Under the pieces are notes generated by a model. That model was not told where the DNA came from, did not search any database, and saw only the letters and a program-made list of their open reading frames with translations. The position numbers and the translations under genes were made by a program. DNA of 62,435 nt, the filler included, from Thermodesulfobacteriota bacterium (lineage in GTDB: Bacteria > DASVDK01), in NCBI GenBank assembly GCA_036381125.1. It is 8 parts of 8 records of this genome, joined end to end, with 100 filler letters (N's around TTAATTAATTAA, not from the genome) between each part and the next. Parts side by side here need not be neighbours in the genome. Positions count along the whole stretch, not along the records: positions 9,376 to 23,276 come from DASVDK010000213.1; 7 more parts are not named here. One strand, written 5' to 3'. The number at the start of each line of letters is the position of its first letter. The first letter of the stretch is position 1. Below are positions 9,276-59,632 of the stretch, in pieces.

Positions 9276-9375
9276 NNNNNNNNNNNNNNNNNNNNNNNNN
9301 NNNNNNNNNNNNNNNNNNNTTAATTAATTAANNNNNNNNNNNNNNNNNNNNNNNNNNNNNNNNNNNNNNNNNNNN
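9276..9375. other. Artificial contig linker
   Basis: N-run, TTAATTAATTAA (stops in all six frames), N-run. Confidence 0.98.
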
Positions 9376-9617
9376 GGCCCCCGGGTGTGGGTCCGGGGCG
9401 ACGCCCCGGTCGAGCGGAGGCCCGGCTTTGCGGGGCCGGAGCGGACGGCGGCCTGCCCGCCGTTGATGGCGCGGACGCCGGCCGCGAGCCGTTGGCAAAG
9501 GCGCGGCGGGAGCCGCGCCGTGAGGCGAGCGGCCACCGGTCGAAGCGAGCCGAAGGCTCGCGTGGAGCGGAGCCCGGGTTGACCCCGGGCGGAGCGGACG
9601 GCGGCCGCGAGCCGTTG
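9376..9617 (+). repeat. Tandem copies of a modular palindromic (REP/MITE-like) repeat: partial copy 9376-9466, full copy 9485-9617
   Basis: Shares CGAGCCGTTGGC...GTGAGGCGAGCGGCCACCGG...GAGCGGAGC...GGAGCGGACGGCGGCCGCGAGCCGTTG with 27119-27254 (minus strand). Confidence 0.85.
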
Positions 9618-9638
9618 TTGGAGGAGAAGGAGAGCATC

Positions 9639-9746
9639 GTGATCAGCGAGCGCAAGCGCGAGATCAAGCGCCGACGCCACCGCAGGGAGAAGGCGCTCAA
9701 GGCCAGGCGCCGGGCCGCGGCCCAGGCCAGGACCAAGGCCCGATAG
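9639..9746 (+). CDS. Small Arg/Lys-rich protein (resembles the DUF6800 family)
   Basis: AGGAG RBS; MISERKREIKRRRHRREKALKARRRAAAQARTKAR. Confidence 0.6.
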   Translation: MISERKREIKRRRHRREKALKARRRAAAQARTKAR

Positions 9747-9778
9747 CCGTGCCGGCGGGGCGAGCGGCTCGCCCCGCC

Positions 9779-9807
9779 TTGACGGCCCGGCGGCCGTCGA
9801 TTACGCT
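9779..9807 (+). promoter_or_regulatory. sigma70 promoter of tRNA-His
   Basis: TTGACG-N17-TACGCT. Confidence 0.6.
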
Positions 9808-9823
9808 TTCTCGTTCGTCGTGC

Positions 9824-9900
9824 GGTGAGCGTAGCTTAGTCGGTAGAGCGCCGGGTTGTGGCCCCGGAGGTCGTGGGTTCAAATCCCATCGCTCACCCCA
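9824..9900 (+). tRNA. tRNA-His (GTG) with encoded G-1 and CCA
   Basis: Acceptor GTGAGCG/CGCTCAC; anticodon arm CCGGG-TTGTGGC-CCCGG; T-loop GTTCAAATC; 3' CCA. Confidence 0.96.
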
Positions 9901-9941
9901 ACATCCTCGTCCGCAAGCGCCACGCGCCCCAAGGGTTCCCG

Positions 9942-10250
9942 ATGCCGGACTTCGTAACCGTCGCCCAGGTGGGTGACCTCGCCCCTGGAGAGGGCCGGGT
10001 CGTCGAGGTCGACGGGGCCAGCATCGCGCTCTTCAACGCGGGCGGCGTCTTCTACGCCCTCGACAACACCTGCCCCCATCGCGGCGGCCCGCTCGGAGAG
10101 GGGCTGGTCGAGGGGGACACCGTCACCTGCCCCTGGCACAACTGGTCGTTCCGGCTCGCGACGGGCGAGCACGTCGCCACGTCGAAGGTCAAGGTGGCCT
10201 GCTACCCGGTGCGGGTGGTGGGGACCGACGTGCAGGTGAAGGTCGCGTGA
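9942..10250 (+). CDS. Rieske [2Fe-2S] ferredoxin (NirD/dioxygenase ferredoxin-like)
   Basis: CPHRGG and CPWH motifs. Confidence 0.92.
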   Translation: MPDFVTVAQVGDLAPGEGRVVEVDGASIALFNAGGVFYALDNTCPHRGGPLGEGLVEGDTVTCPWHNWSFRLATGEHVATSKVKVACYPVRVVGTDVQVKVA

Positions 10251-10612
10251 AAGTCGCCCTCACCGCGGTCGACGACCTCTTCTTCATCGCGAAGATCGAC
10301 CACGGCCTCGCGCAGGTGGGGTTCGAGCGGGAGGCGGTGTCGGAGGCGGAGGCGGTGCTGTCGGCCAGACGGGCGGGGCGGGGCGACCTGCTGATCCTCG
10401 ACCTCGGGCACCGGCGCGTCGACCCCTTCGCCCTGCTCGAGGCGGTGAAGGGGGACCCGGCGGGGCGCGACCTGCCGGTGCTCGCCTACGTCTCGCACGT
10501 CGACGCCGAACGGTGGGCCCGGGCGGAGGCCCTCGGCGCCGACAAGGTGGTTGCCCGGTCGGAGTTCTCGGCGCGACTGCCCCGGCTCGTGGCCGACCTC
10601 GCGCGCGCCTGA
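10247..10612 (+). CDS. Stand-alone receiver-like (CheY-fold) protein
   Basis: VDDLFF, LLILDL, AYVSH, ALGADKVV pattern; GTGA coupling to the Rieske gene. Confidence 0.75.
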   Translation: MKVALTAVDDLFFIAKIDHGLAQVGFEREAVSEAEAVLSARRAGRGDLLILDLGHRRVDPFALLEAVKGDPAGRDLPVLAYVSHVDAERWARAEALGADKVVARSEFSARLPRLVADLARA

Positions 10613-10643
10613 ACGTCGCGCCGACCGACCGGCGCGGCCGCGC

Positions 10644-11063
10644 CTAGTTGATCGTGTTCGACGTCGGCATCCCGATCGTGGTCGACCGCACCGAGAGCCC
10701 CGAGCCCTGGTGGTGAACGAGCAGCCAGGCGCCTGCCACCCGCTCGAACACGTTCGTCGCCGCCACCGCGCCTTCCATCGCCTCCCCGTTCGCGACCGCG
10801 GTGATGTGCTCCACACAGATCACCACGGCGAGACGCTCGCTCTCGAAGAGGTGAACGTTGGACACGCGGACGCGAAAGAGGTCGGTCGCTTCGAAGATCC
10901 GGCGCCAGGACGCTTCGACGGCCGCCCAGCCCTTGAGCGGCGCCTCGCCCGGATGCGCGCAGCGGACCTCGTCCGTCTGCTTCCAGACGCTGGCCATGGC
11001 GTCGAGGTCCTGCGCCTCCATGGCGCGGTAGAAGGCCGTGTTCGCGGCGATCGGCGTCGACAT
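10644..11063 (-). CDS. SnoaL/NTF2-like protein
   Basis: ANTAFYRAMEAQDLDAMASVW; CAHPG; ATNVFE; WLLVHHQGS. Confidence 0.85.
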   Translation of the reverse strand: MSTPIAANTAFYRAMEAQDLDAMASVWKQTDEVRCAHPGEAPLKGWAAVEASWRRIFEATDLFRVRVSNVHLFESERLAVVICVEHITAVANGEAMEGAVAATNVFERVAGAWLLVHHQGSGLSVRSTTIGMPTSNTIN

Positions 11064-11131
11064 GGTACGATCTTCGAATGCAGGCGAGCCGATGTCAAAC
11101 CGCCGAGGGCACCCAAGGAGGAGACGTATCG

Positions 11132-11611
11132 ATGGCTCGCCCCACCGCGAAGCTGACCGTCGGCGACGAGGCGCCCGACTTCACGCTGCCCGACCAGGAG
11201 GGCAGGCCCTGGAGGCTTGCCGGCCTCCGGGGCGCGAAGCACGCGGTGCTCGCGTTCGTCCCCGCCGCGTTCACGCCCGTCTGAACCGTCCAGATGCCGG
11301 CGTACGAGGAGGACCTCCCCGAGTTCGCCCGGTACGATGCCCAGGTCGTGGGCATCGACGTGGACAATCACCCATCCAACGCCGCCTGGGCCAGGTCGAT
11401 GGGCGGCCTGAGCTACCCGCTCCTGTCGGACTTCTGGCCGCACGGCTTCGTCGCGACGAAGTACCAGGTGCTCCGCCCGGAGGGCTACACCGAGCGCGCG
11501 ATCTTCGTCGTCGACAAGCAGGGGAAGATCGCGTACGTCGACATCCACGACATCAACGAGCAGCCGGACAACGGCGAACTCTTCAAGGTCCTGCGGACCC
11601 TGCAGCGCTAG
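11132..11611 (+). CDS. Selenocysteine-containing peroxiredoxin (AhpE-like); in-frame UGA 11282-11284 read as Sec51
   Basis: AGGAGG RBS. Two in-frame ORF halves are joined by a single TGA exactly at the peroxidatic site (PAAFTPV*TVQM, matching PxxxTxxC). LSDFWPHG and ERAIFVVDK motifs lie downstream. Confidence 0.9.
11301..11320 (+). promoter_or_regulatory. Candidate bacterial SECIS hairpin (peroxiredoxin)
   Basis: GAGG-AGGA-CCTC; the loop starts 25 nt after the UGA and contains G. Confidence 0.4.
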
Positions 11612-11627
11612 GCCGTCCGGAGCGTCG

Positions 11628-12308
11628 ATGACGATCGAGATGTCGCGCCTCTGCATCCCCTTCACGCCGCTCGCGCGCCCGCTCGCCGACTGCCGCGTGG
11701 CGCTCGTCTCCACGGCGGGCGTCTACGCGGCCGGCCAGGAGCCGTTCGATCCGGACAACGACGTCTCCATCCGCGTGGTGCCCTCGGGCGCGGCGACCGG
11801 CGCCTTGCGCGTCTCCCACGGGCACTACGACCACGCGTCGGCCGATCGCGATCCGAACGTCGTCTTCCCGCTCGACCGGCTCCGCGAGATGGCGGCGGCG
11901 GGCGAGATCAAGGAACTCGCGCCTGGCGCGGTCTCCATGGGCTTCACGCAGTCCTTCCGGGTCGTCCGGGACGAGACGACCCCCCGGATCGTCGACGAGG
12001 TGAACCGCTGGAGCGTCGACGCCTGCGTCCTCACGGCCGGCTGACCGCTCTGCCACAGGAGCGTGGTCACGATCCAGCGAGCCATCGAGATGACCGGCGT
12101 GTCGACCGTCCTGGTCACCGTGGACCCCGAGCAGTCCCGGGCCGCGCGGCCTCCGCGGGGGCTCTACCCGGAGGGCTTCCCCATCGGCGAGAGCCTCGGC
12201 CGGCCGGGCGAGCGCGAGGTCCAGCGGCACGTGCTGCACGACGCGCTCTCGCTCCTCGCCCGCTACCCGGAGGAGCCGGGGGGCATCGTCGCGCGCGCGT
12301 ACCGGTAG
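11628..12308 (+). CDS. Selenoprotein of the GrdB/PrdB (glycine/betaine/D-proline reductase B) family; in-frame UGA 12042-12044 read as Sec139
   Basis: PFTPLARPLADCRVALVSTAGVY; HYDH...DPNVVFPLDRLRE; VLTAG*PLCHRSVVTIQRAIE matches the PrdB TAG-U-xx-CHRS motif; both halves in frame. Confidence 0.88.
12058..12075 (+). promoter_or_regulatory. Candidate bacterial SECIS hairpin (PrdB-like gene)
   Basis: GGA-G-CGT-GGTC-ACG-A-TCC; GGUC loop 20 nt after the UGA. Confidence 0.45.
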
Positions 12309-12312
12309 GCGC

Positions 12313-13137
12313 GTGGTTCGGGTGCCGCCCAGGCTCGTCGGGCGCCACGAGCTGCTCGACGAGCCCCGCGTCGACCCTCGCGCCCTCGAGGCGAGCCTCG
12401 CGGACCTGCGCGTCATCAACCGCATCCTCGGCTACACGGCCGGCGCCGTGTCCGACGTGTGGCCGCTCGTCCGGGAGGCGGCGAGCCGGAGGCGAGGGCG
12501 GCCCGTGGTCGTCCTCGACGCCGGGGCCGGGTCCGCCGACATCGCCCTCGCGCTGGCCCGGCGAGCGGACCGCGAGCGCCTCCCCCTCACGGTGCTCGCG
12601 CTCGACAACCACCCGGAGGTGCTCGGCGTCGCGAGGCGGTACCTCGCTCGCGTCGGGCGGGGCGCCGGGGCCCGGGTGCGCCTGGTGCGGGGCGACGCGC
12701 TCTCGCTCCCGCTCGGCGACGGCGGCGTCGACGTCGCGCTCGCCTCCCTGCTCCTCCACCACCTCGACGGTGATGCGGCCGTGGCGCTCCTCCGCGAGCT
12801 GGCGCGGGTGGCCCGCACGGGCGTCGTCGTGAGCGACCTCGTCCGCCACCCGCTCGCCCTGCTCGGCATCCGCGTGCTCACCCGTCTCGGCCCCTTCCAC
12901 CCGATGACGCGCCACGACGGCGCGCTCTCGGTCCGGCGCGCCTACACCGAGGCGGAACTCCGCGACCTGGCGGCCCGCGCGGGCCTTGGCGAGCACGGCC
13001 GCGAGTTGCGGCATCCGCTCTGGCGAATGGCCTGGGTCTGGAGGCCGGCCGGTGACGCCCCTCGGCACTCCCCCGCAGCGCGTTTCGTGCCCGAGCCGTC
13101 CGGACCGGGCGATCTGCGAGGCACGTCGCGAGGTTAG
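12313..13137 (+). CDS. Class I SAM-dependent methyltransferase
   Basis: VLDAGAGSAD motif I; GDALSLP; SLLLHHL; SDLVR; HDGALSVRRAYT. Confidence 0.88.
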   Translation: MVRVPPRLVGRHELLDEPRVDPRALEASLADLRVINRILGYTAGAVSDVWPLVREAASRRRGRPVVVLDAGAGSADIALALARRADRERLPLTVLALDNHPEVLGVARRYLARVGRGAGARVRLVRGDALSLPLGDGGVDVALASLLLHHLDGDAAVALLRELARVARTGVVVSDLVRHPLALLGIRVLTRLGPFHPMTRHDGALSVRRAYTEAELRDLAARAGLGEHGRELRHPLWRMAWVWRPAGDAPRHSPAARFVPEPSGPGDLRGTSRG

Positions 13138-13140
13138 CTG

Positions 13141-13156
13141 TGGTACGGGTCTTGCT
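13141..13156 (+). promoter_or_regulatory. sigma54 (-24/-12) promoter upstream of cheW
   Basis: TGGTACG-GGTC-TTGCT (GG-N10-GC). Confidence 0.65.
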
Positions 13157-13197
13157 GCCCACTGCGGCGGCCCGCTCTCGCTCACGGAGGAGTCGCC

Positions 13198-13668
13198 GTG
13201 ATCAAGAAGTTCGTGACGCTCGGCCTCGGCGCGTCCCGATACGCCGTCGAGGTCAGCAAGGTGCGGGAGATCCTCGCCCGCTTCGAAGTCGCGCCGCTCC
13301 CCAAGACCCCGGCCTACATCGAGGGGATCATCAGCCTGCGCGGCGAGATCATCCCGGTCGTCGATCTTCGGGTCCGCTTCGAGCTTCCGGCGAAGGTCCG
13401 AGACGAGGAGACCCGGATCATCGTCGTCGAGCTGCCCGACTGCCAGGTCGGCATCAAGGTGGACCGCGTCTTCGAGGTCCTCAAGCTCGACGAGGCCGCC
13501 ATCGAGCCTCCGCCGCCCCTCGTGGCCGGCCTCAAGGCGGACTACCTCGAGGGCGTGTGCGAGGTGCAGGGCCGCCTCGTCACCATCCTGCGCCTCGACG
13601 CCATCCTCTCCACGACCGAGCGCATCCAGCTTGCCGAGGAGGTCGCCGCCGCGCAGGCGACCCTCTAG
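13198..13668 (+). CDS. cheW: Chemotaxis coupling protein CheW
   Basis: YAVEVSKVREI; LPKTPAYIEGIISLRGEIIPVVDLR; GIKVDRV. Confidence 0.92.
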   Translation: MIKKFVTLGLGASRYAVEVSKVREILARFEVAPLPKTPAYIEGIISLRGEIIPVVDLRVRFELPAKVRDEETRIIVVELPDCQVGIKVDRVFEVLKLDEAAIEPPPPLVAGLKADYLEGVCEVQGRLVTILRLDAILSTTERIQLAEEVAAAQATL

Positions 13669-13783
13669 GCGGACGCGACCCCCGGTGAGCCGGCGCTGAC
13701 CGCCGCTCGCCACGAGACGGGTGGACAAGCGGCCCGCGGCGATGCACCGTGTGGGGCACACGGTGCAGCGGGAGGTCCATGCC

Positions 13784-14224
13784 ATGGGTGTACGGATGCT
13801 GGTCGCGGTGGACGGCAGCGAGGGCAGCGAGCGAGCGCTGCGGGAGGCGCTCCGGCTCTCGGCGGGCGACAGGCCGCGTGTCCGCCTCGTCCACGTGCTC
13901 GACACGGCTCTCTACCTCGACGTGTTCGGCGAGGAGCCGCAGGTTCACGAGGCCTGGCGCCGTACGGGTCAGACGTACCTCGACCGCGCGGCCGCGATCG
14001 CGCAGGCCGCCGGCGCCGAGACCGAGACCGCGCTGATCGAGAAGCCCGGCGGACAGCGGACGAGCCGGGCGATCACCGACGAGGCGGAGCGCTGGGGGGC
14101 CGACCTGATCGTGCTCGGCACGCACGGGCGGCGCGGGCTCGATCACGTCCTCCTCGGGAGCGTCGCGGAAGGGGTTGTCCGCGCTGCCTCCGTCCCGGTC
14201 CTCACCGTTCGGGCCGCCTCCTGA
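13784..14224 (+). CDS. Universal stress protein (Usp)
   Basis: LVAVDGSEGS; DLIVLGTHGRRGLDHVLLGSVAEGVVR; GGAGG RBS. Confidence 0.92.
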   Translation: MGVRMLVAVDGSEGSERALREALRLSAGDRPRVRLVHVLDTALYLDVFGEEPQVHEAWRRTGQTYLDRAAAIAQAAGAETETALIEKPGGQRTSRAITDEAERWGADLIVLGTHGRRGLDHVLLGSVAEGVVRAASVPVLTVRAAS

Positions 14225-14347
14225 GCGTCGTCAAGGCTCACCCCTCGAGGGCCCGACCGCTGCGACCTCGATGCACCGTCCGCGCGGGAAGCCCTGCTCC
14301 CGCGGCGGGCGCGGTGCTGGCGCAGGGCAGGAAAGGTCGTTTCCCTC

Positions 14348-14845
14348 ATGCGTACCACCCGAACCGCCGCGGCCGCGCTCGCGTTCGCCCTGGCGGCGTC
14401 GCCCGCGATCGCCCAACAGAGCGGTACGTCGTCGACGCAGTCGCAGACGAGCCGGTCCGGCGGCCAGCAGGACGTGAGCCGGCAGGACCTCCAGAAGTAC
14501 GTCCAGGCCCTTCAGTCGATGTCCCAGGTCGAGCCCGACATCGAGCAGGCGCTCCAGCAGGGGCAGCCCGTGGATTTCTCGGTTCTCAACCGGGTCCCGC
14601 AGGACGACGCGAAAAAGGCCATCCAGCAGTCGGGGCTGTCGAACGACGAGTTCCGCTTCATCACCGAGAAGCTCGACCAGGACCCCTCGGTCAAGCAGCA
14701 GTTCCAGCAGGTCGCCCGGCAGCAGATGCAGCAGGGGGGCAGCCAGTCGGGCAGCATGTCCGGCTCGGGCGGCCCGCAACCGGGCGGCTCCCAGCCAGGC
14801 GGCGCGCAGTCCGGAGGTGCGCAGCCGTCGTCGAGCCCGCAGTAG
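14348..14845 (+). CDS. Secreted Gln/Ser/Gly-rich protein with a DUF4168-like core
   Basis: Signal peptide ending AIA-Q; AIQQSGLSNDEFRFI...DP; low-complexity tails. Confidence 0.65.
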   Translation: MRTTRTAAAALAFALAASPAIAQQSGTSSTQSQTSRSGGQQDVSRQDLQKYVQALQSMSQVEPDIEQALQQGQPVDFSVLNRVPQDDAKKAIQQSGLSNDEFRFITEKLDQDPSVKQQFQQVARQQMQQGGSQSGSMSGSGGPQPGGSQPGGAQSGGAQPSSSPQ

Positions 14846-14905
14846 CGCGGCGCGAGTGCGGGCGGGAGCGCAGGCCGCGCCCCGTCCGCGCCTCGCTCGA
14901 GGGCT

Positions 14906-15844
14906 TCAGCGGACGGTTCGCGACGTGACCGCGTGGGCGGCGCGCAGCAGGTGGAAGGTGATGAGCGCCTGCGTGATGGCGAGCGGGTTGCTGTGCCGCC
15001 GCTCGAAGCGATCGGCGTAGAGCCCGATGGCGGCCGGCAGCGGGCGCACGTCGGCGGGCATGGAGCGCCAGATCGCCTGCTCGACGCGGGCCGTCTCCTC
15101 GGGCGTGACCTGGCCGTCGATCTCCAGGAAGTCCACCGGCAGCCCGTCGTCGCGCCCCAGCGTCAGGCGGACCGGTCCGTCGTCGGCGTCTCCCAGGATG
15201 GCGCTCAGGTTGGGGTGGGGGATCCTCGGCCGCAGCACGAGCCGGACGTTGAGGTGGCCGTCCCCGCCGGCGGCCGGCCCGGATGCGCCGGGATGGAAGC
15301 GGACCACCAGGTCGGCGTGTGCGCGCTGCGGGCGGATGAAGCGGGCCGAGTCGGGCTCGCGCCGCTCGAGGTCGCGCAGCACCTCGTTGGGCGTGTACCC
15401 GCGCTTGGTCGTGTCGCGCGTGATCTTCCAGAGGCGCCTGAGTTCCTCGGCGGGGTCCAGGTAGACCTTCACGTCGAAGCACTCGCGCATCCGCTCCGTG
15501 TAGAGGCCGAAGAGGCCCTCGACGATGATGAAGCGCTTCGGCGACACGTACTCCGGCCGGGCGAGGGTGCCGTCGCGGTGGTCGTAGACCGGCTTGAGGA
15601 TCGGCTCGCCGCGACAGAGGCGCTGCAGGTCGAGCTCGAGCACGTCGAGGTAGTTGGCGTCCGGGTGGAGGGGCGTCAGGTTTCGGATCCGGCGCTCGTG
15701 GCGATCGTACTTGTGGTAGTCGTCGGTGCAGACCTTCGTGACGCGGTCCGGCCCGAGGATCTCGGCGATCCCGTCCGTGAGCGTCGTCTTGCCCGCCGCG
15801 CTGTCGCCGACGACGGCCAGTACGATCGGCCGCTCGAGTGCCAT
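14906..15844 (-). CDS. prk: Phosphoribulokinase (PRK/uridine kinase family, cyanobacterial/archaeal-type)
   Basis: VVGDSAAGKTT Walker A; DDYHKYDR; KPVYDH; IIVEGL; WKITRDTTKRGY; FIRPQR. Confidence 0.8.
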   Translation of the reverse strand: MALERPIVLAVVGDSAAGKTTLTDGIAEILGPDRVTKVCTDDYHKYDRHERRIRNLTPLHPDANYLDVLELDLQRLCRGEPILKPVYDHRDGTLARPEYVSPKRFIIVEGLFGLYTERMRECFDVKVYLDPAEELRRLWKITRDTTKRGYTPNEVLRDLERREPDSARFIRPQRAHADLVVRFHPGASGPAAGGDGHLNVRLVLRPRIPHPNLSAILGDADDGPVRLTLGRDDGLPVDFLEIDGQVTPEETARVEQAIWRSMPADVRPLPAAIGLYADRFERRHSNPLAITQALITFHLLRAAHAVTSRTVR

Positions 15845-15873
15845 GGCCCTCCCTCTTTGTGAAAATACTCTCA

Positions 15874-15902
15874 AGCATGGCCGCATGACCGGCGCTTGTC
15901 AA
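15874..15902 (-). promoter_or_regulatory. sigma70 promoter of prk
   Basis: TTGACA-N17-CATGCT. Confidence 0.6.
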
Positions 15903-15991
15903 CTTCCGCGAGCCTCGGGGCTCCCCGGTCGTGTCGGCAACGCGTCGCCGCGGCCGGTCGCGACCTCCCGGCGCGCCGGCTCGGCCGCCCC

Positions 15992-16090
15992 GGAAAACGG
16001 AAAGACCTGACCCCCTGGAAAACGAGTGGGGTCAGACCCCCTGGAAAACGGAAAGACCTGACCCCATGGAAAATGGAAAGACCTGACCCC
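15992..16090. repeat. Four tandem ~25-bp units GGAAAACGGAAAGACCTGACCCC(CT)
   Basis: Units start at 15992, 16017 (variant carrying the GGGGTCAGACCCC palindrome), 16043 and 16068. Confidence 0.9.
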
Positions 16091-16091
16091 G

Positions 16092-17246
16092 CTACGAGAG
16101 GGCCTGCTCGAGGTCCTCCAGGAGGTCGTCGACGTGCTCGATGCCGACGGAGAGGCGAACCATGGTGTCGGAGATGCCGAGCGCCGCGCGCCGCTCGGGC
16201 GGCAGCGAGGCGTGCGTCATGATCGCCGGGTGCTCGACGAGCGACTCGACGCCGCCGAGCGACTCGGCCAGGGCGAAGAGCCTGAGCCGCTCGAGGAACC
16301 GGCGCGCCTCCTCGAGGCCGCCGTGCAGGTCGCAGGTGATCATGCCGCCGAAGCCCCGCATCTGCCGCTTCGCGAGCGCGTGCTGCGGGTGGGACGGCAG
16401 CCCCGGGTAGCGCACCCGGGCGATCCTCGGATGCGTCTCGAGGAACCGCGCGATCGCCATGGCGTTGGCCTCGTGCTGCCGCATCCGGAGCGGGAGCGTC
16501 TTCACCCCGCGCATGGCGAGCCAGCTGTCCATGGGGCCCGCGACCGCGCCGATGGCGTTCTGCAGGAAGCCGAGGCGCTCCGCCAGGTCCTCGCGGTCGG
16601 TCACGACCACGCCGCCGATCACGTCCGAGTGCCCGGCCAGGTACTTGGTGGCCGAGTGGACCACCACGTCGATCCCGAAGCGGAGCGGCTGCTGGAAGTA
16701 GGGGCTCGGGAAGGTGTTGTCGCAGATGGTGAGCCATCCGTGCCGGCGGGCGACAGTGGCCATCGCCTCGAGATCGACGAGCTTCAGGGCGGGGTTGGTC
16801 GGGGTCTCGATCCAGACGCCGCGCGTCCGTCCGGTCGCCGCCCGGGCGAGGTTGGCCGGGTCGGTCAGGTCCGCGTAGGCGAAGTCGAGCCCGTAGTCGC
16901 GCAGCACCCGCTCGAACAGGCGGAAGGTGCCGCCGTACATGTCGTCCATCGCGATGACGTGGTCGCCCGCCTTGAAGAGGTGCATGACCGTCGTCGACGC
17001 GGCCATCCCGCTCGCGAAGGCGAAGCCGAAGCGGCCCCCCTCGAGCGCCGCCACGTTCGCCTCGTAGGCCGCTCGCGTCGGGTTCTTCGTGCGCGAGTAG
17101 TCGTAGCCGCGGTGCCGGCCCGGCGACTCCTGGACGAACGTCGAGGTCTGGTAGATCGGCGTCATGATGGCGCCGGTCGCGGGGTCGGGCTCCTGCCCCG
17201 CGTGGACCGCCAGCGTCTCGAACCGGTGCTCGGGCCTCGTCTTCAC
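16092..17246 (-). CDS. Cystathionine gamma-lyase/synthase (Cys/Met metabolism PLP enzyme)
   Basis: TPIYQTSTF; YSRTKNPTR; IETPTNP; HSATKYLAGHSD; AESLGGVESL. Confidence 0.93.
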   Translation of the reverse strand: MKTRPEHRFETLAVHAGQEPDPATGAIMTPIYQTSTFVQESPGRHRGYDYSRTKNPTRAAYEANVAALEGGRFGFAFASGMAASTTVMHLFKAGDHVIAMDDMYGGTFRLFERVLRDYGLDFAYADLTDPANLARAATGRTRGVWIETPTNPALKLVDLEAMATVARRHGWLTICDNTFPSPYFQQPLRFGIDVVVHSATKYLAGHSDVIGGVVVTDREDLAERLGFLQNAIGAVAGPMDSWLAMRGVKTLPLRMRQHEANAMAIARFLETHPRIARVRYPGLPSHPQHALAKRQMRGFGGMITCDLHGGLEEARRFLERLRLFALAESLGGVESLVEHPAIMTHASLPPERRAALGISDTMVRLSVGIEHVDDLLEDLEQALS

Positions 17247-17274
17247 GCCGTCCGCCTCCCTCGATCCTGCTTGC

Positions 17275-18663
17275 CTACTTGATCCGCTCGCCCAGGTAGG
17301 TGATCAGGTCGATCTTCGTCACGAGGCCGTAGAAGTCGTCGCCCCGCGTCACGATCGCCACCTCGCCCCGGTCGAGGATCGGCATGAGTGCCTCGGCCGG
17401 CGCGTCGGGGTCGACCGTGTTGAGCTTCGTGACGACGAGCCGCTCGATCGTGTCGGTCGCCGTGACCCGGCCCTGCACGAGCGGGACGACGAGGTCCGAC
17501 TCGTCGATGATGCCGAGGAGCTTGTCCCCCGCCATGACCGGCAGCTGCGAGATGCCGTGCGCCTTCATCTTGGTGATCACGTCGCGCACCGTGTCGAACT
17601 GCCCGCACGTGACGACCTCCCCGCGGTCGTACCGGCGCGAGACGACGTCCTTCACCGTGCCGAGCGCCACGCGCCGCTCGAAGAAGCCGGCCTCGCGCAT
17701 CCAGTCGTCGTTGTAGAGCTTCGACAGGTAGCGGCTGCCGCTGTCCGGCAGGACCACCACCACGTTGAGCGGCCGGCCGCCCGCCTCCTCGTGCTCGCGC
17801 ACGAAGCGGAGCGCGCCCACGACCGCGGCACCGCCCGAGCTGCCGGTGTAGAGGCCCTCGCTCGTGAGCAGCTCGCGCGCCATCAGGTAGGACTCCTTGT
17901 CGTTGACGCGCACGACCTCGTCGATCGCCGTGAGGTCCATCGTGCTCGGGAAGAAGTCCTCGCCGATCCCCTCGATGAGGTACGCGTGCGGCTCGACGAC
18001 CTCGCCACGCTCGAAGAAGTCCTTGTAGACCGATCCCTCGGGGTCCACGCCGACGATCCGGACGTCGGGCTTGCGCTCCTTGAGGTAGCGCGACACGCCG
18101 GTGATCGTGCCGCCGGTCCCCATCCCGGCCACGAAGGCGTCGATCTCGCCGCCGGTCTGCTCCCAGATCTCCGGGCCGGTGGTCCGGTAGTGGGCCAGCG
18201 GGTTGTCGGGGTTGTGGTACTGGTTCGCGTAGAAGGCGTTCGGCGTCTCCCGCGCGAGGCGCTCGGCGACGGAGTAGTAGCTGCGGGGGTCGTCCGGGGC
18301 GACGTTCGTGGGGGTGACGATCACCTTCGCGCCGAAGGCGCGGAGGTTCTGGATCTTCTCCTGGCTCTGCTTGTCCGGCATGACGAAGACGAGCCTGTAG
18401 CCCTTGATGGCGGCCACGAGCGCGAGCCCCATGCCGGTGTTGCCCGAGGTCGCCTCGACGATCGTCGCGCCAGGCCCGATGTCGCCCCGCCGCTCCGCCG
18501 CCTCGAGGATCGTCACGCCGATCCGGTCCTTGATCGACCCGCCCGGGTTCAGGTACTCGAGCTTGGCGGCGATCGTCGACCTGAGCCGCCCGGTCACCCG
18601 GTTGAGCTTCACGATCGGCGTCCCGCCGACCGCCTCGAGCACGTTCCGCTTCATCGCCTTCAT
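17275..18663 (-). CDS. cbs: Cystathionine beta-synthase with C-terminal CBS domains
   Basis: KLEYLNPGGSIKDR; EATSGNTG; GMGTGGT; IEGIG; PDSGSRYLSK; ISQLPV in the CBS pair. Confidence 0.9.
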   Translation of the reverse strand: MKAMKRNVLEAVGGTPIVKLNRVTGRLRSTIAAKLEYLNPGGSIKDRIGVTILEAAERRGDIGPGATIVEATSGNTGMGLALVAAIKGYRLVFVMPDKQSQEKIQNLRAFGAKVIVTPTNVAPDDPRSYYSVAERLARETPNAFYANQYHNPDNPLAHYRTTGPEIWEQTGGEIDAFVAGMGTGGTITGVSRYLKERKPDVRIVGVDPEGSVYKDFFERGEVVEPHAYLIEGIGEDFFPSTMDLTAIDEVVRVNDKESYLMARELLTSEGLYTGSSGGAAVVGALRFVREHEEAGGRPLNVVVVLPDSGSRYLSKLYNDDWMREAGFFERRVALGTVKDVVSRRYDRGEVVTCGQFDTVRDVITKMKAHGISQLPVMAGDKLLGIIDESDLVVPLVQGRVTATDTIERLVVTKLNTVDPDAPAEALMPILDRGEVAIVTRGDDFYGLVTKIDLITYLGERIK

Positions 18664-19356
18664 GGCGAGGCTCCCCTTGCCGGCGCCGGGCACGGCCGGT
18701 CCCGCGACGGAACCGGGCCGGTTCGGCAGGGAACCAGTGTAGGCATCGCGGGAGGCCGGGTGCAAACGGGGGATCGACCGGAGGGCTCGAGGCGGACGAC
18801 CCTGCGGCCGCTTCGGAAGGCCGTCGTCCTGCGGGGCGAGGCGCCGGGGCGGTGGCGACGAGGAGTTCGCGCGTCTCGGAAGGCGGAAGGTCGCCGTGCA
18901 GCGTGCTCGCCTCGTCGAAGACCAGGACCGCCACGTTATCGGCGCTGGCGACGTCGCACACGTCCCGCGCGGTCTCCGCAGAGATGCTCCCGGCGTCACC
19001 GGTCGGGAACGTGAGAGGCCTGGGCGGCTCGACGTTGCCAACCGCCTGTCCGGCTGGCTCGAAAACGAGCGCGTGCCTCCAGTGCATCTCCGCACCTTCG
19101 CCCGAGGCGCCGCAGGGACTAGGGACTGACGGAGAGCCGCGGCCGCAGGCGGTCATCACGGGACTCACGCTATGGCCAGCGCGCCTCGGACTGCCGCGGT
19201 GGGACTGCTGCGGCGTGGCGAGCGGCGCGGGACCGCCGTGGTGCAGAGACCGGTCGACGGCCAGTGCTCGCCCGGTGGACGCCCGTGAGGAGCGACCGGT
19301 CGGTGTGGCGTGGACCGAGGGCCGGCCGTTGCACGACCGGGCAAGGCGGCCGCGCC

Positions 19357-19365
19357 TGGTATACT
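19357..19365 (+). promoter_or_regulatory. Extended -10 promoter of tRNA-Arg
   Basis: TG-G-TATACT, 8 nt upstream of the tRNA. Confidence 0.55.
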
Positions 19366-19373
19366 CCGATCGC

Positions 19374-19450
19374 GCGCCCGTAGCTCAGCTGGATAGAGCA
19401 CCAGGCTTCGAACCTGGGGGCCGGGGGTTCGAGCCCCTCCGGGCGCGCCA
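19374..19450 (+). tRNA. tRNA-Arg (TCG)
   Basis: Acceptor GCGCCCG/CGGGCGC; anticodon arm CCAGG-CTTCGAA-CCTGG; T-loop GTTCGAGC; 3' CCA. Confidence 0.95.
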
Positions 19451-19722
19451 CTCACGCCTGTGCGATCTCGGACCGGATGGCGCTAGCGGCCTCGGGCCCA
19501 GGCCCGACGCCCCCCTGCCCGCCGGCAGGTCCCCACGTCGAGCTGCCGCTCCTCCCTCCTCGCGGCGCCGTTGCCGCGACCGCGGCGAAGCGCGTGTTCC
19601 GGACGGCCAGCGTCAGAGCCGGTGCCGCAGAGTGTCACCGGCCGTGACCGGGCTGCGGGTCCATGATCGGAACCCTGCGCGGAGCATGGCGAAATCCGAT
19701 GCCGCGCGGCCGGGACGCCCGG

Positions 19723-19738
19723 CGGCACGTCGGTTGCT
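19723..19738 (+). promoter_or_regulatory. sigma54 (-24/-12) promoter of the RR-GAF-Hpt operon
   Basis: CGGCACG-TCGG-TTGCT. Confidence 0.65.
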
Positions 19739-19783
19739 AGGAGGACGGGCGCTCCCATACCCGCCGACCGCGCGAGGGGCCCG

Positions 19784-20155
19784 ATGACGCGCAAGAAGAT
19801 CCTCCTGGTGGACGATGCCGAGACGGTCCTGCTCGTCGAGCGGATGGCGCTCGGCAAGGAGCCGTACGAGCTGGTGACGGCGAAGGACGGCGCCGAGGCG
19901 ATCGCGAAGGCGACCGTCATGCGGCCCGATCTGATCCTCATGGACGTCGTCATGCCGAAGATGAACGGCTTCGAGGCGTGCCGGCGGCTCCGGGAATCGG
20001 AGGCGACGAAGGACATCCCGATCGTCCTCGTCACGACCCGCGCGGAGGCCGAGAGCATGCAGACCGGCTTCGAGAGCGGGTGCACCGACTACCTCACCAA
20101 GCCGATCAACGGGGCGGAGCTCCTCGCCAAGGTCAAGCAGTACCTCGGGCAATGA
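19784..20155 (+). CDS. Single-domain response regulator
   Basis: ILLVDD; LILMDVVMP; YLTKP. Confidence 0.93.
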   Translation: MTRKKILLVDDAETVLLVERMALGKEPYELVTAKDGAEAIAKATVMRPDLILMDVVMPKMNGFEACRRLRESEATKDIPIVLVTTRAEAESMQTGFESGCTDYLTKPINGAELLAKVKQYLGQ

Positions 20156-20925
20156 GTCGGCCCGACGACGGCGCGGCTGCCTACGCCCAGAGGGTCCACG
20201 AGAGCACCTGGCGCTTCGCGCAGGAGCTGCTGGCCGAGAACGAGCGGCTGCGCGCGGCGGTCGCCCTCCTCGAGAGCGACAAGGGGCTCCTCGAGGAGCG
20301 GCTCCGCTCGACTCGCGCCCTGCTCGAGCAGCACGAGCAGGCGCGTGCCCAGTTGCAGGAGCGGCTCGGGAAGATCGAGGCCGACAGCGGCCGGCTCGCG
20401 GCGCAGTGCGAGCAGCTCGAGCAGCAGAACTGGATCCAGCTCAACCTCTACGTCGCGAGCTATCGGCTCAACGGAACGCTCGACCGCGACGAGCTCGTGC
20501 GGACCATCCAGGAGATCATCGCCAACCTGATCGGCTCCGAGGAGGCGGCGATCTTCGAGCTGGACCGCGACCGCGGCCTCCTGCGGCTCGTCGCGTCGTT
20601 CGGCGTCGACGCGTCGGGCCTCGATCGGATCCCGCTCGGCGAGGGCGTCATCGGGAAGGCCGTGCTCGACGGGGAGACCTACGTCGCGCCGTCCGCGGCG
20701 GGTGGGCGCCGGCCGGCCGCCGGCCGAGAGCCGACGGCGGTGATCCCGCTCAAGGTCGGGGGAACGGTGACCGGCGCGATCGTCATCTTCCGGCTCCTCC
20801 CGCAGAAGGCGGGCCTCGAAGCGGTCGACCGGGAGCTGTTCGCCGTGCTGGGGACCCACGCGGCAATGGCCCTCTACTGCACGCGGCTGCACGCCCGAGC
20901 GGTAGCGGCGGGGGGCGGCCTGTGA
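20152..20925 (+). CDS. Coiled-coil plus GAF domain protein
   Basis: Heptad-rich N-terminus; LGEGVIGKAV; VIPLKVGG; ATGA coupling to the response regulator. Confidence 0.8.
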   Translation: MSRPDDGAAAYAQRVHESTWRFAQELLAENERLRAAVALLESDKGLLEERLRSTRALLEQHEQARAQLQERLGKIEADSGRLAAQCEQLEQQNWIQLNLYVASYRLNGTLDRDELVRTIQEIIANLIGSEEAAIFELDRDRGLLRLVASFGVDASGLDRIPLGEGVIGKAVLDGETYVAPSAAGGRRPAAGREPTAVIPLKVGGTVTGAIVIFRLLPQKAGLEAVDRELFAVLGTHAAMALYCTRLHARAVAAGGGL

Positions 20926-20958
20926 TCGGGCGGCCGCGGATACCCTAGGAGGACCGAC

Positions 20959-21366
20959 GTGGGCATCGACCGCGAGGCGGTCATCCGCACGTACCTCGCG
21001 GAGGCCGATGGGCAGCTCGGGCAGATCGAGGAGGGGCTCCGCGCGCTCGAGGCGCGGCCGGACGACGCGGGCCGGCTCGAGACGATCTGCCGGGCCGTCC
21101 ACACGCTCAAGGGCACCTCGGCCATGCTCGAGTTCCACCGCGTCGCCGAGTTCGCCCGCGCCGTCGAGGAGGTGCTCGAGCGGCTCGGCGCCGGGACGCT
21201 CGGGGCACGCGACGGGCTCGTGCCGCTCCTCCTCTCGGCGGTCGACGCGCTTCGTGAGTTCGTTCCCGAGGCCGCGGCCGGCGTCCGGGAGTTCCGGCCG
21301 GAGCACGAGGCTCTCCTGCGTCGGCTCGCGGCCGTCGGGGCGGAGGAGACCCCCGGCCCGACGTGA
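20959..21366 (+). CDS. Stand-alone Hpt (CheA P1-like) protein
   Basis: YLAEADGQLGQIEEGL; RAVHTLKG phospho-His motif; AGGAGG RBS. Confidence 0.85.
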   Translation: MGIDREAVIRTYLAEADGQLGQIEEGLRALEARPDDAGRLETICRAVHTLKGTSAMLEFHRVAEFARAVEEVLERLGAGTLGARDGLVPLLLSAVDALREFVPEAAAGVREFRPEHEALLRRLAAVGAEETPGPT

Positions 21367-21370
21367 GGCC

Positions 21371-22102
21371 TCACCGCCGCGACCGCCGGCGCGCGGACGC
21401 CCGTGCGGCGAGCCGCCTTTCCAGATCGAGCGCGTGCGGCAGCGGGAGATCGAGGCCGTCTCGGACCGCGGCCTTCGCGGCCCGCACCGCCTCCCCGGGG
21501 AGCGCGGCCACGGTCCGGGCGAGTGCGAGGGCCGCAGGGACGAGCGCGTCGATCGGCACGACGCGGTTGACCAGGCCGACGGCGAGGGCGGTACCCGCGT
21601 CGACTCGTTTCCCGGTCAGGAGCATCTCGACCGCGGGGCCCCTGGGGATCGCCCGGATGAGCGTCTGCGTCCCGCCCCCGGCCGGGATCAGCCCGAGACC
21701 CGTCTCCGGCAGGCCGAGGGTGGTGCCCTCCGCGGCCAGCCTGAGGTCGCAGAGGAGCGCGAGCTCGAGTCCGGCGCCGAGCGTCGGTCCGTGAAGCGCC
21801 GCGATCCCCGGCTTGTCGAGGCTCCGTAGCAGCTCCCAGTTGTCGCGCGCGTCACGCACCTCGCGCGCCGCGGTCACCGACGGGGCGGAGCCGAACTCGC
21901 CGAGGTCCGCGCCGGCGCAGAAGCAGCGGCCGGCTCCCGAGAGGACGAACGCGCCCACGTCCGGGTCGTCCCGCACGGCGGCGAGCACCTCGGACAGGTC
22001 ATCGCGCATCGCCATGTTGAGCGTGTTGAGCGCTTCGGGCCGGTTGAGCCGCACGTGCGCGACCCGACCCGCCTTCTCGAAGATCACCGTCCGGAAGCCC
22101 AC
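21371..22102 (-). CDS. Enoyl-CoA hydratase/isomerase
   Basis: LNRPEALN; FCAGADL; GAGLEL; LPETGLG (both catalytic Glu present). Confidence 0.9.
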   Translation of the reverse strand: MGFRTVIFEKAGRVAHVRLNRPEALNTLNMAMRDDLSEVLAAVRDDPDVGAFVLSGAGRCFCAGADLGEFGSAPSVTAAREVRDARDNWELLRSLDKPGIAALHGPTLGAGLELALLCDLRLAAEGTTLGLPETGLGLIPAGGGTQTLIRAIPRGPAVEMLLTGKRVDAGTALAVGLVNRVVPIDALVPAALALARTVAALPGEAVRAAKAAVRDGLDLPLPHALDLERRLAARASARRRSRR

Positions 22103-22106
22103 GCCT

Positions 22107-23276: not shown

Positions 23277-23376
23277 NNNNNNNNNNNNNNNNNNNNNNNN
23301 NNNNNNNNNNNNNNNNNNNNTTAATTAATTAANNNNNNNNNNNNNNNNNNNNNNNNNNNNNNNNNNNNNNNNNNNN
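23277..23376. other. Artificial contig linker
   Basis: N-run, TTAATTAATTAA, N-run. Confidence 0.98.
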
Positions 23377-42476: not shown

Positions 42477-42576
42477 NNNNNNNNNNNNNNNNNNNNNNNN
42501 NNNNNNNNNNNNNNNNNNNNTTAATTAATTAANNNNNNNNNNNNNNNNNNNNNNNNNNNNNNNNNNNNNNNNNNNN
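42477..42576. other. Artificial contig linker
   Basis: N-run, TTAATTAATTAA, N-run. Confidence 0.98.
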
Positions 42577-48002: not shown

Positions 48003-48102
48003 NNNNNNNNNNNNNNNNNNNNNNNNNNNNNNNNNNNNNNNNNNNNTTAATTAATTAANNNNNNNNNNNNNNNNNNNNNNNNNNNNNNNNNNNNNNNNNN
48101 NN
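48003..48102. other. Artificial contig linker
   Basis: N-run, TTAATTAATTAA, N-run. Confidence 0.98.
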
Positions 48103-52534: not shown

Positions 52535-52634
52535 NNNNNNNNNNNNNNNNNNNNNNNNNNNNNNNNNNNNNNNNNNNNTTAATTAATTAANNNNNNNNNN
52601 NNNNNNNNNNNNNNNNNNNNNNNNNNNNNNNNNN
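52535..52634. other. Artificial contig linker
   Basis: N-run, TTAATTAATTAA, N-run. Confidence 0.98.
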
Positions 52635-56931: not shown

Positions 56932-57031
56932 NNNNNNNNNNNNNNNNNNNNNNNNNNNNNNNNNNNNNNNNNNNNTTAATTAATTAANNNNNNNNNNNNN
57001 NNNNNNNNNNNNNNNNNNNNNNNNNNNNNNN
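56932..57031. other. Artificial contig linker
   Basis: N-run, TTAATTAATTAA, N-run. Confidence 0.98.
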
Positions 57032-59532: not shown

Positions 59533-59632
59533 NNNNNNNNNNNNNNNNNNNNNNNNNNNNNNNNNNNNNNNNNNNNTTAATTAATTAANNNNNNNNNNNN
59601 NNNNNNNNNNNNNNNNNNNNNNNNNNNNNNNN
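59533..59632. other. Artificial contig linker
   Basis: N-run, TTAATTAATTAA, N-run. Confidence 0.98.

Follow-up and report, generated by a model that had tools for sequence, protein, structure and literature searches.

A conserved gene pair encoding an AhpE-like selenocysteine peroxiredoxin and an orphan PrdB-like selenoprotein, and its possible role as a redox module

The locus described here lies in the genome of a Thermodesulfobacteriota bacterium (GCA_036381125.1). The window, the whole stretch of 62,435 nucleotides that was analysed, consists of eight contigs separated by N spacers; the locus is on the 13.9-kb contig at positions 9376–23276. Three genes are arranged in tandem on the + strand. 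The first (gene A; 11132..11611, ATG at 11132, TAG stop at 11609–11611) codes for a predicted selenocysteine (Sec) peroxiredoxin (Prx) of the AhpE type, the second (gene B; 11628..12308, ATG at 11628, TAG stop at 12306–12308) for a predicted PrdB-like selenoprotein of the GRDB superfamily, and the third (12313..13137, GTG start at 12313) for a class I SAM methyltransferase of 274 aa (Pfam Methyltransf_25/11). The intergenic gaps are 16 nt between genes A and B and 4 nt between gene B and the methyltransferase gene, and the coordinates and anatomy of the sequence-only reading, two closely spaced co-oriented genes with a methyltransferase following, are as it gave them. A Shine-Dalgarno-like sequence, AAGGAGGAG (11115..11123, + strand), is read directly from the sequence 8 nt before the gene A start codon, and ATG 11132 is therefore preferred as the start over an upstream ATG at 11078. 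Each of the two selenoprotein genes contains an in-frame TGA on the + strand, at 11282..11284 in gene A and at 12042..12044 in gene B. No promoter or terminator was found in a scan of 10500–14400.

With TGA read as Sec (U), gene A specifies a 159 aa protein with U51 at the peroxidatic position (PAAFTPVU), in the motif P44-x3-T48-x2-U51 (PxxxTxxU), and with no Cys anywhere, which bears out the earlier description of a Cys-free peroxiredoxin. It matches Pfam AhpC-TSA (PF00578) with 120.2 bits (cut-off 26, E 6.4e-35); its best solved relative is Mycobacterium tuberculosis AhpE Rv2238c (E 7.8e-30, residues 4–144), and AhpE or AhpC/TSA proteins of the mycobacterial type fill the first seven places among the PDB sequence matches (E 8e-30 to 2e-28). 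The PxxxT/SxxC active site and its conserved Arg are accounted for by P44, T48, U51 (Sec for Cys) and R122, with P44 and R122 invariant, and T48 nearly so, in an alignment of 23 relatives. By its PDB matches, gene A is a one-Cys-type, AhpE-like peroxiredoxin without a resolving Cys. Members of the AhpE subfamily depend on an external thiol partner, and AhpE itself is recycled by mycoredoxin-1/mycothiol. Gene A shares with AhpE the motif (PxxxTxxC in Rv2238c), the conserved Arg and the need for an external reductant, and neither protein has a resolving Cys; but the peroxidatic residue of gene A is Sec, and the candidate reductant encoded next to it is a protein of the GRDB/PrdB fold family and not a glutaredoxin or mycoredoxin. 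Sec at the peroxidatic position is also seen in the known Sec-peroxiredoxins ('Prx, TxxU'; PrxU of Eubacterium acidaminophilum), a family that reviews also list, although gene A is of AhpE type rather than a 2-Cys Prx and matches the NCBIfam PrxU model weakly (35.6 bits, cut-off 270). A fused glutaredoxin domain (PF00462) is present in about 30 of the 120 top-listed Prx relatives, and the three fusions aligned have WCPDC/WCPDS motifs. Proteins of this fused kind are among the closest Cys-type relatives of gene A, and thus the clade to which its Prx belongs seems to favour keeping a dedicated CxxC reductant beside the peroxiredoxin.

Gene B, read in the same way, specifies 226 aa with the UxxC redox motif in the context U139-P-L-C142-H-R. 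It matches Pfam GRDB (PF07355) at residues 57–137 only (36.6 bits, cut-off 22), and NCBIfam TIGR04483 (PrdB) over model positions 20–221 of 238 with 154.9 bits, which is under the curated cut-off of 300; seven PrdB-like relatives score 93.8–196.8 bits with the same model. The protein is thus homologous over its whole length to PrdB (TIGR04483) and GrdB (PF07355), with UxxC and Sec at the same place, but it falls below the equivalog cut-off and is accompanied by a peroxiredoxin instead of PrdA, PrdC, GrdA or GrdE. Metagenome surveys count proteins of this kind as 'proline reductase PrdB, UxxC' selenoproteins. The motif U/C-x(2,3)-C-H-R is invariant across the family, and in an AF2 model of gene B (pLDDT 92.9) it is placed between strand 132–137 and helix 143–154. 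Residues H66, Y67, D68, D75, N77, F80 and P81 are likewise invariant, and together with the length of 226 aa they make the protein more complex than a plain disulfide carrier would be; it could have a substrate of its own. A PDB sequence search with the family gave no match below E 0.3, Foldseek of the model against the PDB gave none at E ≤ 0.001 (best E 2.4e-3, TM 0.40), and an ESM Atlas search with one relative (P0012) returned GRDB/PrdB clusters only. The sequence-only reading had found no prdA, grdA or grdE partner on the contig, and none of the GrdA, GrdE, PrdA and PrdC families is present among the Pfam-scanned ORFs of the 13.9-kb contig; in 10 diverse related loci PrdA, PrdC, GrdA and GrdE are all missing within about 3.3 kb of the PrdB-like gene. 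These searches support the classification of gene B as an orphan PrdB-like protein, without PrdA on the contig or in the 10 diverse loci.

The two in-frame TGAs were compared with the equivalent codons in public genomes, in the loci of the top 80 out of at least 575 confirmed relatives. The gene A column is TGA in 72 of the 78 loci that cover it and TGC/TGT in the other 6; the gene B column is TGA in 65 of 80 loci and TGC/TGT in 15. The Prx/PrdB-like residue combinations are Sec/Sec in 62 loci, Sec/Cys in 10, Cys/Sec in 1 and Cys/Cys in 5, with the Prx column uncovered in the remaining 2. Since both columns are TGA or TGC/TGT across loci, they are read as real Sec/Cys pairs and not as errors; the Cys orthologues that had been proposed as a check thus exist for both genes, and each TGA is exactly at the catalytic position, as had been claimed. 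The coding signal persists beyond both TGAs, with GC3 values flanking the gene A TGA of 0.97 upstream and 0.93 downstream. Across the 62-kb window only four TGAs are flanked on both sides by coding-like sequence (GC3 ≥ 0.88, 40 stop-free codons); two of them are the Sec sites and the other two resemble gene junctions.

It is barely credible that sequencing errors or pseudogene lesions account for these TGAs, or that they are Trp or Gly codons of another genetic code. Some database gene callers do translate the Prx Sec column as W (P0126, P0127, P0130, P0131), but the two columns are TGA or TGC/TGT and nothing else in independent assemblies, coding continues on the 3' side of both codons, and TGA serves as a normal stop codon in this genome, where 22 of 41 listed high-GC3 frames of the window end in it. 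The alternative-code and pseudogene readings were rejected on these grounds. Comparison of the loci supports the view that both are genuine Sec/Cys-pair selenoprotein genes, and we infer that Sec is inserted in this organism. A point that counts against a Sec-based relay is that selA, selB, selD and tRNA-Sec are all missing from the window's eight contigs (Rfam/tRNA search, and Pfam on the ORFs scanned). The expectation that standard annotation fragments both genes proved correct, as the closest database relatives are N-terminal and C-terminal pieces of 138 and 105 aa, respectively, and the seven closest database PrdB-like proteins all stop at ...TAG directly before the Sec column.

Both genes have a hairpin downstream of the TGA. 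In bacterial SECIS elements the apical loop is about 16–37 nt after the UGA and includes a G. The candidate SECIS hairpin of gene A (11295..11334, + strand) is present in the minimum-energy structure, with its stem beginning 14 nt after the U of UGA, and it is followed by a second conserved hairpin, AUGCCCA-GGUCG-UGGGCAU (11337..11355, + strand), which is in the RNAalifold consensus and lies beyond the distance from the UGA that is usual for a SECIS. The candidate SECIS hairpin of gene B, GGA-G-CGU[GGUC]ACG-A-UCC (12058..12075, + strand), is part of the minimum-energy fold, and its loop occupies positions +24 to +27, counting from the U of the UGA. The SECIS-like hairpins of the sequence-only reading are present at the right distance and conserved in position, but their folding energies are unexceptional for a 72% G+C genome: the z values against shuffles are −1.07 (gene A) and +0.29 (gene B), and the fractions of synonymous-codon resamplings at least as stable are 0.12 and 0.91, respectively. 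Folding energy was rejected as a SECIS test, as by shuffles and synonymous resampling it does not discriminate in a G+C-rich genome. Rfam at the gathering threshold reports only two tRNAs in the window (tRNA-His and tRNA-Arg), and no bSECIS model reaches threshold.

Support for the hairpins is accordingly comparative, and the chance-level energies in the window count against the Sec relay reading. RNAalifold does not include the lower stem of the gene A hairpin, because its register shifts between lineages, and this stem was tested as a hand-set, fixed-register structure. Among 22 non-redundant Sec forms, 67.5% of the lower-stem cells are paired in the fixed register, with changes on both sides at 3 of 7 pairs; in the whole 18-pair structure formed by both hairpins 80.6% of cells pair, compared with 33–43% when the partners are slid. 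The second hairpin has 97.4% of cells paired, and at one pair 7 of the 22 sequences have a G-C to A-U swap. The gene A region folds at −17.5 kcal/mol in Sec forms (n=73) and −9.6 in Cys forms (n=6), a difference partly confounded with G+C content. In gene B a strict stem count, unfit for the asymmetric internal loop, recognised just 3 of 66 Sec forms, and loop positions were counted instead: 64 of 66 Sec forms, but only 6 of 15 Cys forms, have GGUC at +24 or +21. The consensus hairpin of the PrdB-like family is 95.2% paired with little covariation, and its register in the window and in one other locus (L022) is shifted by 3 nt.

The association of the two genes is conserved. A Prx of the same subfamily is directly beside the PrdB-like gene in 79 of the 80 loci, the exception being at a contig edge, although 67 of the 80 are labelled Acidobacteriota and these counts are therefore not independent. 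The Prx is upstream and on the same strand in 76 loci, with a projected gap of 5–437 nt (median about 106), and in three it is convergent to the PrdB-like gene about 60 nt away. Carriers of the pair are found in records labelled Acidobacteriota, Chloroflexota, Methylomirabilota and Deltaproteobacteria. Conserved synteny had been suggested as something to look for, and the pair is clearly not unique to the window. Adjacency is kept in the all-Cys pairs as well, which makes the link independent of selenium. Around the pair, no third conserved gene was seen in 10 diverse loci (138 ORFs scanned).

The methyltransferase, which scores 142.3 bits with NCBIfam NF004851 (cut-off 243), is by this comparison a local neighbour only and outside the conserved module. 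The sequence-only reading had included it in a three-gene system in which it would methylate the product of a Sec-Sec relay. The 4 nt between the gene B stop and the methyltransferase start make co-transcription in this organism plausible, but a homologue (E ≤ 1e-5) is found in none of the 80 related loci, a count made without the window's closest relatives (78–94% identity), and the genes downstream of the pair vary by lineage in the 10 diverse loci (ferredoxin, fumarase, LigD, alcohol dehydrogenase, phosphofructokinase). The full three-gene model is thus very improbable, and we did not retain the methyltransferase as part of the system.

The adjacency in 79 of 80 loci strongly suggests that the PrdB-like protein is a functional partner of the Cys-free Prx, and that part of the earlier proposal stands; the relay between them is a further step. 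We give even chances to a two-gene redox module in which the PrdB-like U/CxxC protein would be the dedicated reductant of the Prx. Peroxide would oxidise Prx U51 to a selenenic acid, and the selenolate of U139 in the PrdB-like protein would attack the oxidised U51, so that the two proteins are briefly joined by an Se-Se bond (Se-S or S-S where Cys replaces Sec). C142 would then resolve the mixed bond to leave an intramolecular selenenylsulfide within the PrdB-like protein, which would be re-reduced by one of the cell's general reductants, for example the thioredoxin system. The PrdB-like protein would thereby do for this Prx what mycoredoxin, glutaredoxin, AhpD or AhpF does for other peroxiredoxins; both the direct electron transfer and the upstream reductant are inferred. 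Points in favour, in addition to the adjacency, are the missing third conserved gene, the similarity of the Prx to AhpE with no resolving Cys, the Prx-Grx fusions in its clade, and the position of the invariant U/C-x(2,3)-C-H-R motif at a strand-to-helix junction in the model. The arrangement is reminiscent of AhpC-AhpF, AhpC-AhpD and the Prx-Grx fusions, where a Prx is next to or fused with a CxxC-type protein, but here the PrdB-like fold has no solved relative and no link to Prx recycling was found in the literature searched.

A less likely account, although one with some weight, is that the two genes belong to one stress regulon and exchange no electrons, the PrdB-like protein being a reductase with its own small-molecule or protein substrate; in variants of it, thioredoxin serves each of the two proteins separately, or the Prx acts on the PrdB-like enzyme by protecting or oxidising it. 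The invariant residues beyond the redox motif and the full-length homology to the catalytic selenoprotein of D-proline reductase fit such an enzyme. So does the lack of fusions, which counts against the relay: none of the 120 PrdB-like relatives listed has a Prx domain, and a search of longer Prx relatives gave three hits, none with PF07355 (weak evidence). Against it, PrdA/GrdE, the substrate-activating pyruvoyl partner of the known enzymes, is missing from the contig and the 10 diverse loci, and immediate adjacency to a single Prx subfamily is tighter than a shared regulon needs. That gene B is a genuine D-proline reductase PrdB with PrdA and PrdC elsewhere in the genome is highly improbable, even though PrdB is its best NCBIfam model and relatives are named 'D-proline reductase (dithiol) PrdB' in the sources; the scores of gene B and its seven relatives are far from the TIGR04483 cut-off, PrdA is near the gene in no locus examined (the contig and the 10 diverse loci), and by record label most carriers are soil Acidobacteriota and Chloroflexota. 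The broader form of the relay reading, that orphan PrdB-like proteins are not amino-acid reductases but a new class of peroxiredoxin reductase recycling AhpE-type Sec-Prx by a Se-to-Se relay, is tentative and falls somewhat short of an even chance. If it is correct, the GRDB fold would be a redox carrier that was later recruited by the Stickland reductases, or the reverse.

Selenoprotein operons described previously include grdA-grdB, prdB-prdC, frhA-frhD-hdrA, Prx/SelW, Prx-like/AhpD-like, SAO and Tso (PMC13188914). As in the locus described here, there are two Sec genes per operon, presumably of one pathway, but the Prx/PrdB pair is not among the examples given there. Neither the pairing nor a function for an orphan PrdB-like protein was found in the published literature searched. 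The suggestion of an undescribed system is nevertheless overstated, because the abundant selenoprotein families catalogued from 2005 onwards already include Prx (TxxU) and 'proline reductase PrdB' (UxxC).

The recurrence of the pair in many soil bacteria suggests that orphan PrdB proteins may recycle a peroxide-destroying enzyme, and the near-obligatory link to a Cys-free Sec-Prx offers a concrete, testable function for them. If true, this would add a new class of reductant to peroxiredoxin biology, and the pairs would provide a natural Se-Se, Se-S and S-S series for asking why selenium is used. Both genes are routinely split or mis-translated in public annotation (as the two partial proteins, or with W at the Sec column), and their spread is thus under-counted. 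Most of the PrdB-like carriers found here are no Stickland fermenters, and PrdA is missing from the neighbourhood of the gene. PrdB is among the five most widespread selenoprotein families in bacterial genomes and ranks with the top families in ocean surveys; the Sargasso Sea selenoproteome lists 42 'proline reductase PrdB' and 43 Prx sequences, and the GOS selenoproteome 235 and 253, respectively.

The window consists of eight contigs joined by seven N44-TTAATTAATTAA-N44 spacers (9276–9375, 23277–23376, 42477–42576, 48003–48102, 52535–52634, 56932–57031 and 59533–59632), so that "this contig" refers only to the 72% G+C piece at 9376–23276, and genes on other pieces need not be close. This piece carries a peroxiredoxin gene (gene A) extending from ATG 11132 to TAG 11611 (+) with an in-frame TGA at 11282–11284, preceded by a Shine-Dalgarno-like AAGGAGGAG (11115–11123, +), and a PrdB-like gene (gene B) extending from ATG 11628 to TAG 12308 (+) with an in-frame TGA at 12042–12044. 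The sequence-only reading described these as a tandem selenoprotein operon with a methyltransferase gene (GTG 12313 to 13137, +) as third member, and the gaps it reported, 16 nt between genes A and B and 4 nt between gene B and the methyltransferase gene, agree with the sequence. A SnoaL-like gene lies upstream of gene A on the opposite strand (10644–11063), and CheW and Usp genes are found downstream of the locus in a Pfam scan.

Translated with TGA as U, gene A codes for a 159-aa protein containing U51 and no cysteines. It matches Pfam AhpC-TSA (120.2 bits), its top relative of solved structure is M. tuberculosis AhpE (E 7.8e-30), and P44-x3-T48-x2-U51 and R122 are invariant or nearly so in an alignment of 23 relatives; none of 16 NCBIfam peroxiredoxin models scores at or above its own cut-off. 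The gene B product (226 aa, TGA as U) contains the motif U139-P-L-C142-H-R and passes Pfam GRDB (36.6 bits, cut-off 22). Its alignment with the NCBIfam PrdB model covers almost the full protein but scores 154.9 bits, below the cut-off of 300, with seven relatives at 93.8–196.8 bits, and it is therefore referred to as PrdB-like and not as PrdB. An AlphaFold2 model from 21 aligned sequences is confident (pLDDT 92.9) and places the U-x-x-C motif between a strand (132–137) and a helix (143–154); a sequence search finds no solved relatives of this fold (E > 0.3), and the top Foldseek match has E 2.4e-3 and TM 0.40.

Four lines of evidence, one of them the ordinary use of TGA as a stop in this genome, support the prediction that both in-frame TGAs are selenocysteine codons. 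Only four TGAs in the whole window have coding-like sequence on both sides (GC3 of at least 0.88 over 40 stop-free codons), and two of these are the gene A and B sites, across which the coding signal continues. The other two, at 20923 (+) and 50222 (-), look like stop codons behind which another gene continues in the same frame, an Hpt gene in the former case and a hydrolase gene after an SDR gene in the latter, rather than Sec codons. The seven closest gene B relatives (78–94% identity) are each 138 aa long and end in ...TAG right before the Sec column, and the closest gene A relatives (82–90% identity) are 105-aa pieces beginning right after it, as expected for unrecognized Sec genes and as the sequence-only reading anticipated of standard annotation. 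Full-length gene B relatives (39–52% identity) have Cys at the Sec column. Four "full-length" gene A relatives from public ORF predictions (P0126, P0127, P0130 and P0131) have W there, evidently because some pipelines translate TGA as Trp, which masks a selenoprotein by a route other than truncation. Among the 80 top-ranked gene B relatives, out of at least 575 confirmed in contigs of one genome per species, the gene B column is TGA in 65 and TGC/TGT in 15; in the 78 of these loci that cover it, the gene A column is TGA in 72 and TGC/TGT in six, giving (gene A/gene B) 62 Sec/Sec, ten Sec/Cys, one Cys/Sec and five Cys/Cys loci. Each TGA thus sits at a Cys/Sec position, as had been claimed. Genes for tRNA-Sec, SelA, SelB and SelD are absent from the eight contigs of the window.

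The SECIS-like hairpins of the earlier reading are present and draw support from relatives, but the window folds themselves exceed neither dinucleotide shuffles (z -1.07 for gene A, +0.29 for gene B) nor synonymous-codon resampling (0.12 and 0.91), and the SECIS evidence is therefore comparative and moderate. In gene A the minimum-energy fold gives a candidate hairpin of about 40 nt (11295–11334, +) beginning 14 nt after the U of UGA, followed by a very well conserved second hairpin (11337–11355, +; AUGCCCA-GGUCG-UGGGCAU), presumably beyond the usual SECIS distance from the UGA. A fixed-register structure of 18 pairs spanning both has 80.6% of cells paired in 22 non-redundant Sec forms, compared with 33–43% with slid partners, and its covariation score is reached by none of 500 shuffles; both sides change at three of seven lower-stem pairs, in part through amino-acid changes. 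The stretch folds at -17.5 kcal/mol in Sec forms (n = 73) and -9.6 in Cys forms (n = 6), the latter having lower G+C (0.49 versus 0.58). The second hairpin is 97% paired in the 22 Sec forms, seven of which replace a G-C pair by A-U, and is much weaker in the six Cys forms (-5.0 versus -12.3 kcal/mol). The putative gene B hairpin (12058–12075, +; GGA-G-CGU[GGUC]ACG-A-UCC) is a fold of the window sequence; the consensus stem of the family is 95.2% paired and nearly invariant, so that covariation tells little. Counted from the U of UGA, GGUC occurs at +24 or +21 in 64 of 66 gene B Sec forms versus 6 of 15 Cys forms, where its synonymous loss is possible (ACC-GUC in locus L004 versus ACG-GUC in L003, with an identical peptide stretch there).

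The conserved unit is the pair and not the triplet. In 79 of the 80 loci examined, which hold the top-ranked of at least 575 confirmed relatives, the PrdB-like gene adjoins a same-subfamily peroxiredoxin gene (45–64% identity to gene A), counts that are not independent because 67 of the 80 are titled Acidobacteriota; in the remaining locus the PrdB-like gene begins 146 nt from the contig end. The peroxiredoxin gene is upstream on the same strand in 76 loci (projected gap 5–437 nt, median about 106) and convergent in three, about 60 nt apart. Other records with the pair have titles naming Ktedonobacterales/Ktedonobacteraceae (3), Chloroflexota/Chloroflexia (3), Methylomirabilota (2) and Deltaproteobacteria (1), and the closest database relative of the window is labelled Thermodesulfobacteriota-like by its source, in a truncated label. 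Neighbors in ten diverse loci are unrelated, including NuoB-like, ferredoxin, 2-Cys peroxiredoxin, fumarase, LigD, alcohol dehydrogenase, phosphofructokinase and ThiF-rhodanese genes. In two loci a further peroxiredoxin, of typical 2-Cys kind (FTFVCPTE type), is encoded beside the pair (L011, 4886–5470, +; L042, 4246–4812, -), with a 1-cysPrx_C domain in the L011 copy.

Lacking Cys, an AhpE-type peroxiredoxin is unable to resolve its oxidized Sec by itself and requires a partner. Of the 120 nearest relatives listed, about 30, Cys relatives of gene A, have a fused glutaredoxin domain, with WCPDC/WCPDS motifs in all three aligned fusions, whereas the present clade has instead a constant neighbor with U/C-x(2,3)-C-H-R, invariant across the PrdB-like proteins examined. 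Gene order, motifs and this analogy suggest as the simplest reading, with about even confidence, that the PrdB-like protein may be the reductant of the peroxiredoxin: U139 would attack the peroxiredoxin SeOH, C142 would resolve the mixed bond, and a general system would reduce the resulting selenenylsulfide.

The main rival, that the PrdB-like protein acts on a substrate of its own, is favored by further invariant residues (H66, Y67, D68, D75, N77, F80 and P81) and by the lack of any Prx/PrdB-like fusion among the relatives searched; in view of the near-constant peroxiredoxin neighbor, it is considered less likely than the reductant role. A true proline reductase would fit the near-whole-length PrdB alignment and is unlikely, the scores being under the cut-off and no PrdA-, GrdE- or GrdA-type family being found by Pfam among 138 ORFs around the pair in the ten diverse loci, in keeping with the orphan status first proposed for gene B. 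Coupling to methylation is suggested by the 4-nt gap and is likewise unlikely: none of the 80 loci examined has a homologue of the methyltransferase gene, or of the SnoaL, CheW and Usp genes, which places the methyltransferase outside the conserved unit. TGA is an ordinary stop here, ending 22 of 41 high-GC3 frames, and with Sec or Cys codons recurring at both columns it is improbable that the TGAs are artefacts.

Genes A and B add members to two selenoprotein families already known, and the earlier suggestion that the system was undescribed holds, in the literature searched, for the pairing and not for its components. Both families, Prx (TxxU) and "proline reductase PrdB" (UxxC), are well established and abundant, with listings in the Sargasso Sea (PMC1088965) and GOS (PMC2398784) papers, and a 2006 evolution paper (PMC1794560) classes proline reductase among the homologues of thiol oxidoreductases; the literature covered also includes an Olavius symbiont paper (PMC1976440), a 2022 review (PMC9312934) and a 2016 survey (PMC5029168). 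A 2026 review (PMC13188914) has a "Selenoprotein operon" section, which includes grdA-grdB, prdB-prdC, frhA-frhD-hdrA, Prx/SelW, Prx-like/AhpD-like, SAO and Tso and has no Prx/PrdB pair. The openly accessible full texts searched contain no description of a Prx and PrdB-like pairing. This recurrent association, with the role it suggests for orphan PrdB-like proteins, would add a new variety to the peroxiredoxin-reductant systems, and this paired-function reading is open to direct test.

In two loci (L001, 4647–7165; L062, 234–2644, Methylomirabilota-titled) the pair lies between genes for a NuoB-like protein (PF01058) and a 4Fe-4S dicluster ferredoxin, so that in that lineage it may be connected with an electron chain of membrane or hydrogenase type. 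The contig of the Sec pair also has a Cys/Met-metabolism PLP enzyme gene adjoining one for a PALP+CBS-domain enzyme (cystathionine beta-synthase-like; 16092–19095, -); these are transsulfuration-type, and it would be speculative to tie them to the supply of selenium or thiols. A molybdopterin oxidoreductase resembling formate dehydrogenase, with 2Fe-2S and 4Fe-4S domains (59734–62433, -), has no in-frame TGA and, if FdhA, would be a non-Sec form.
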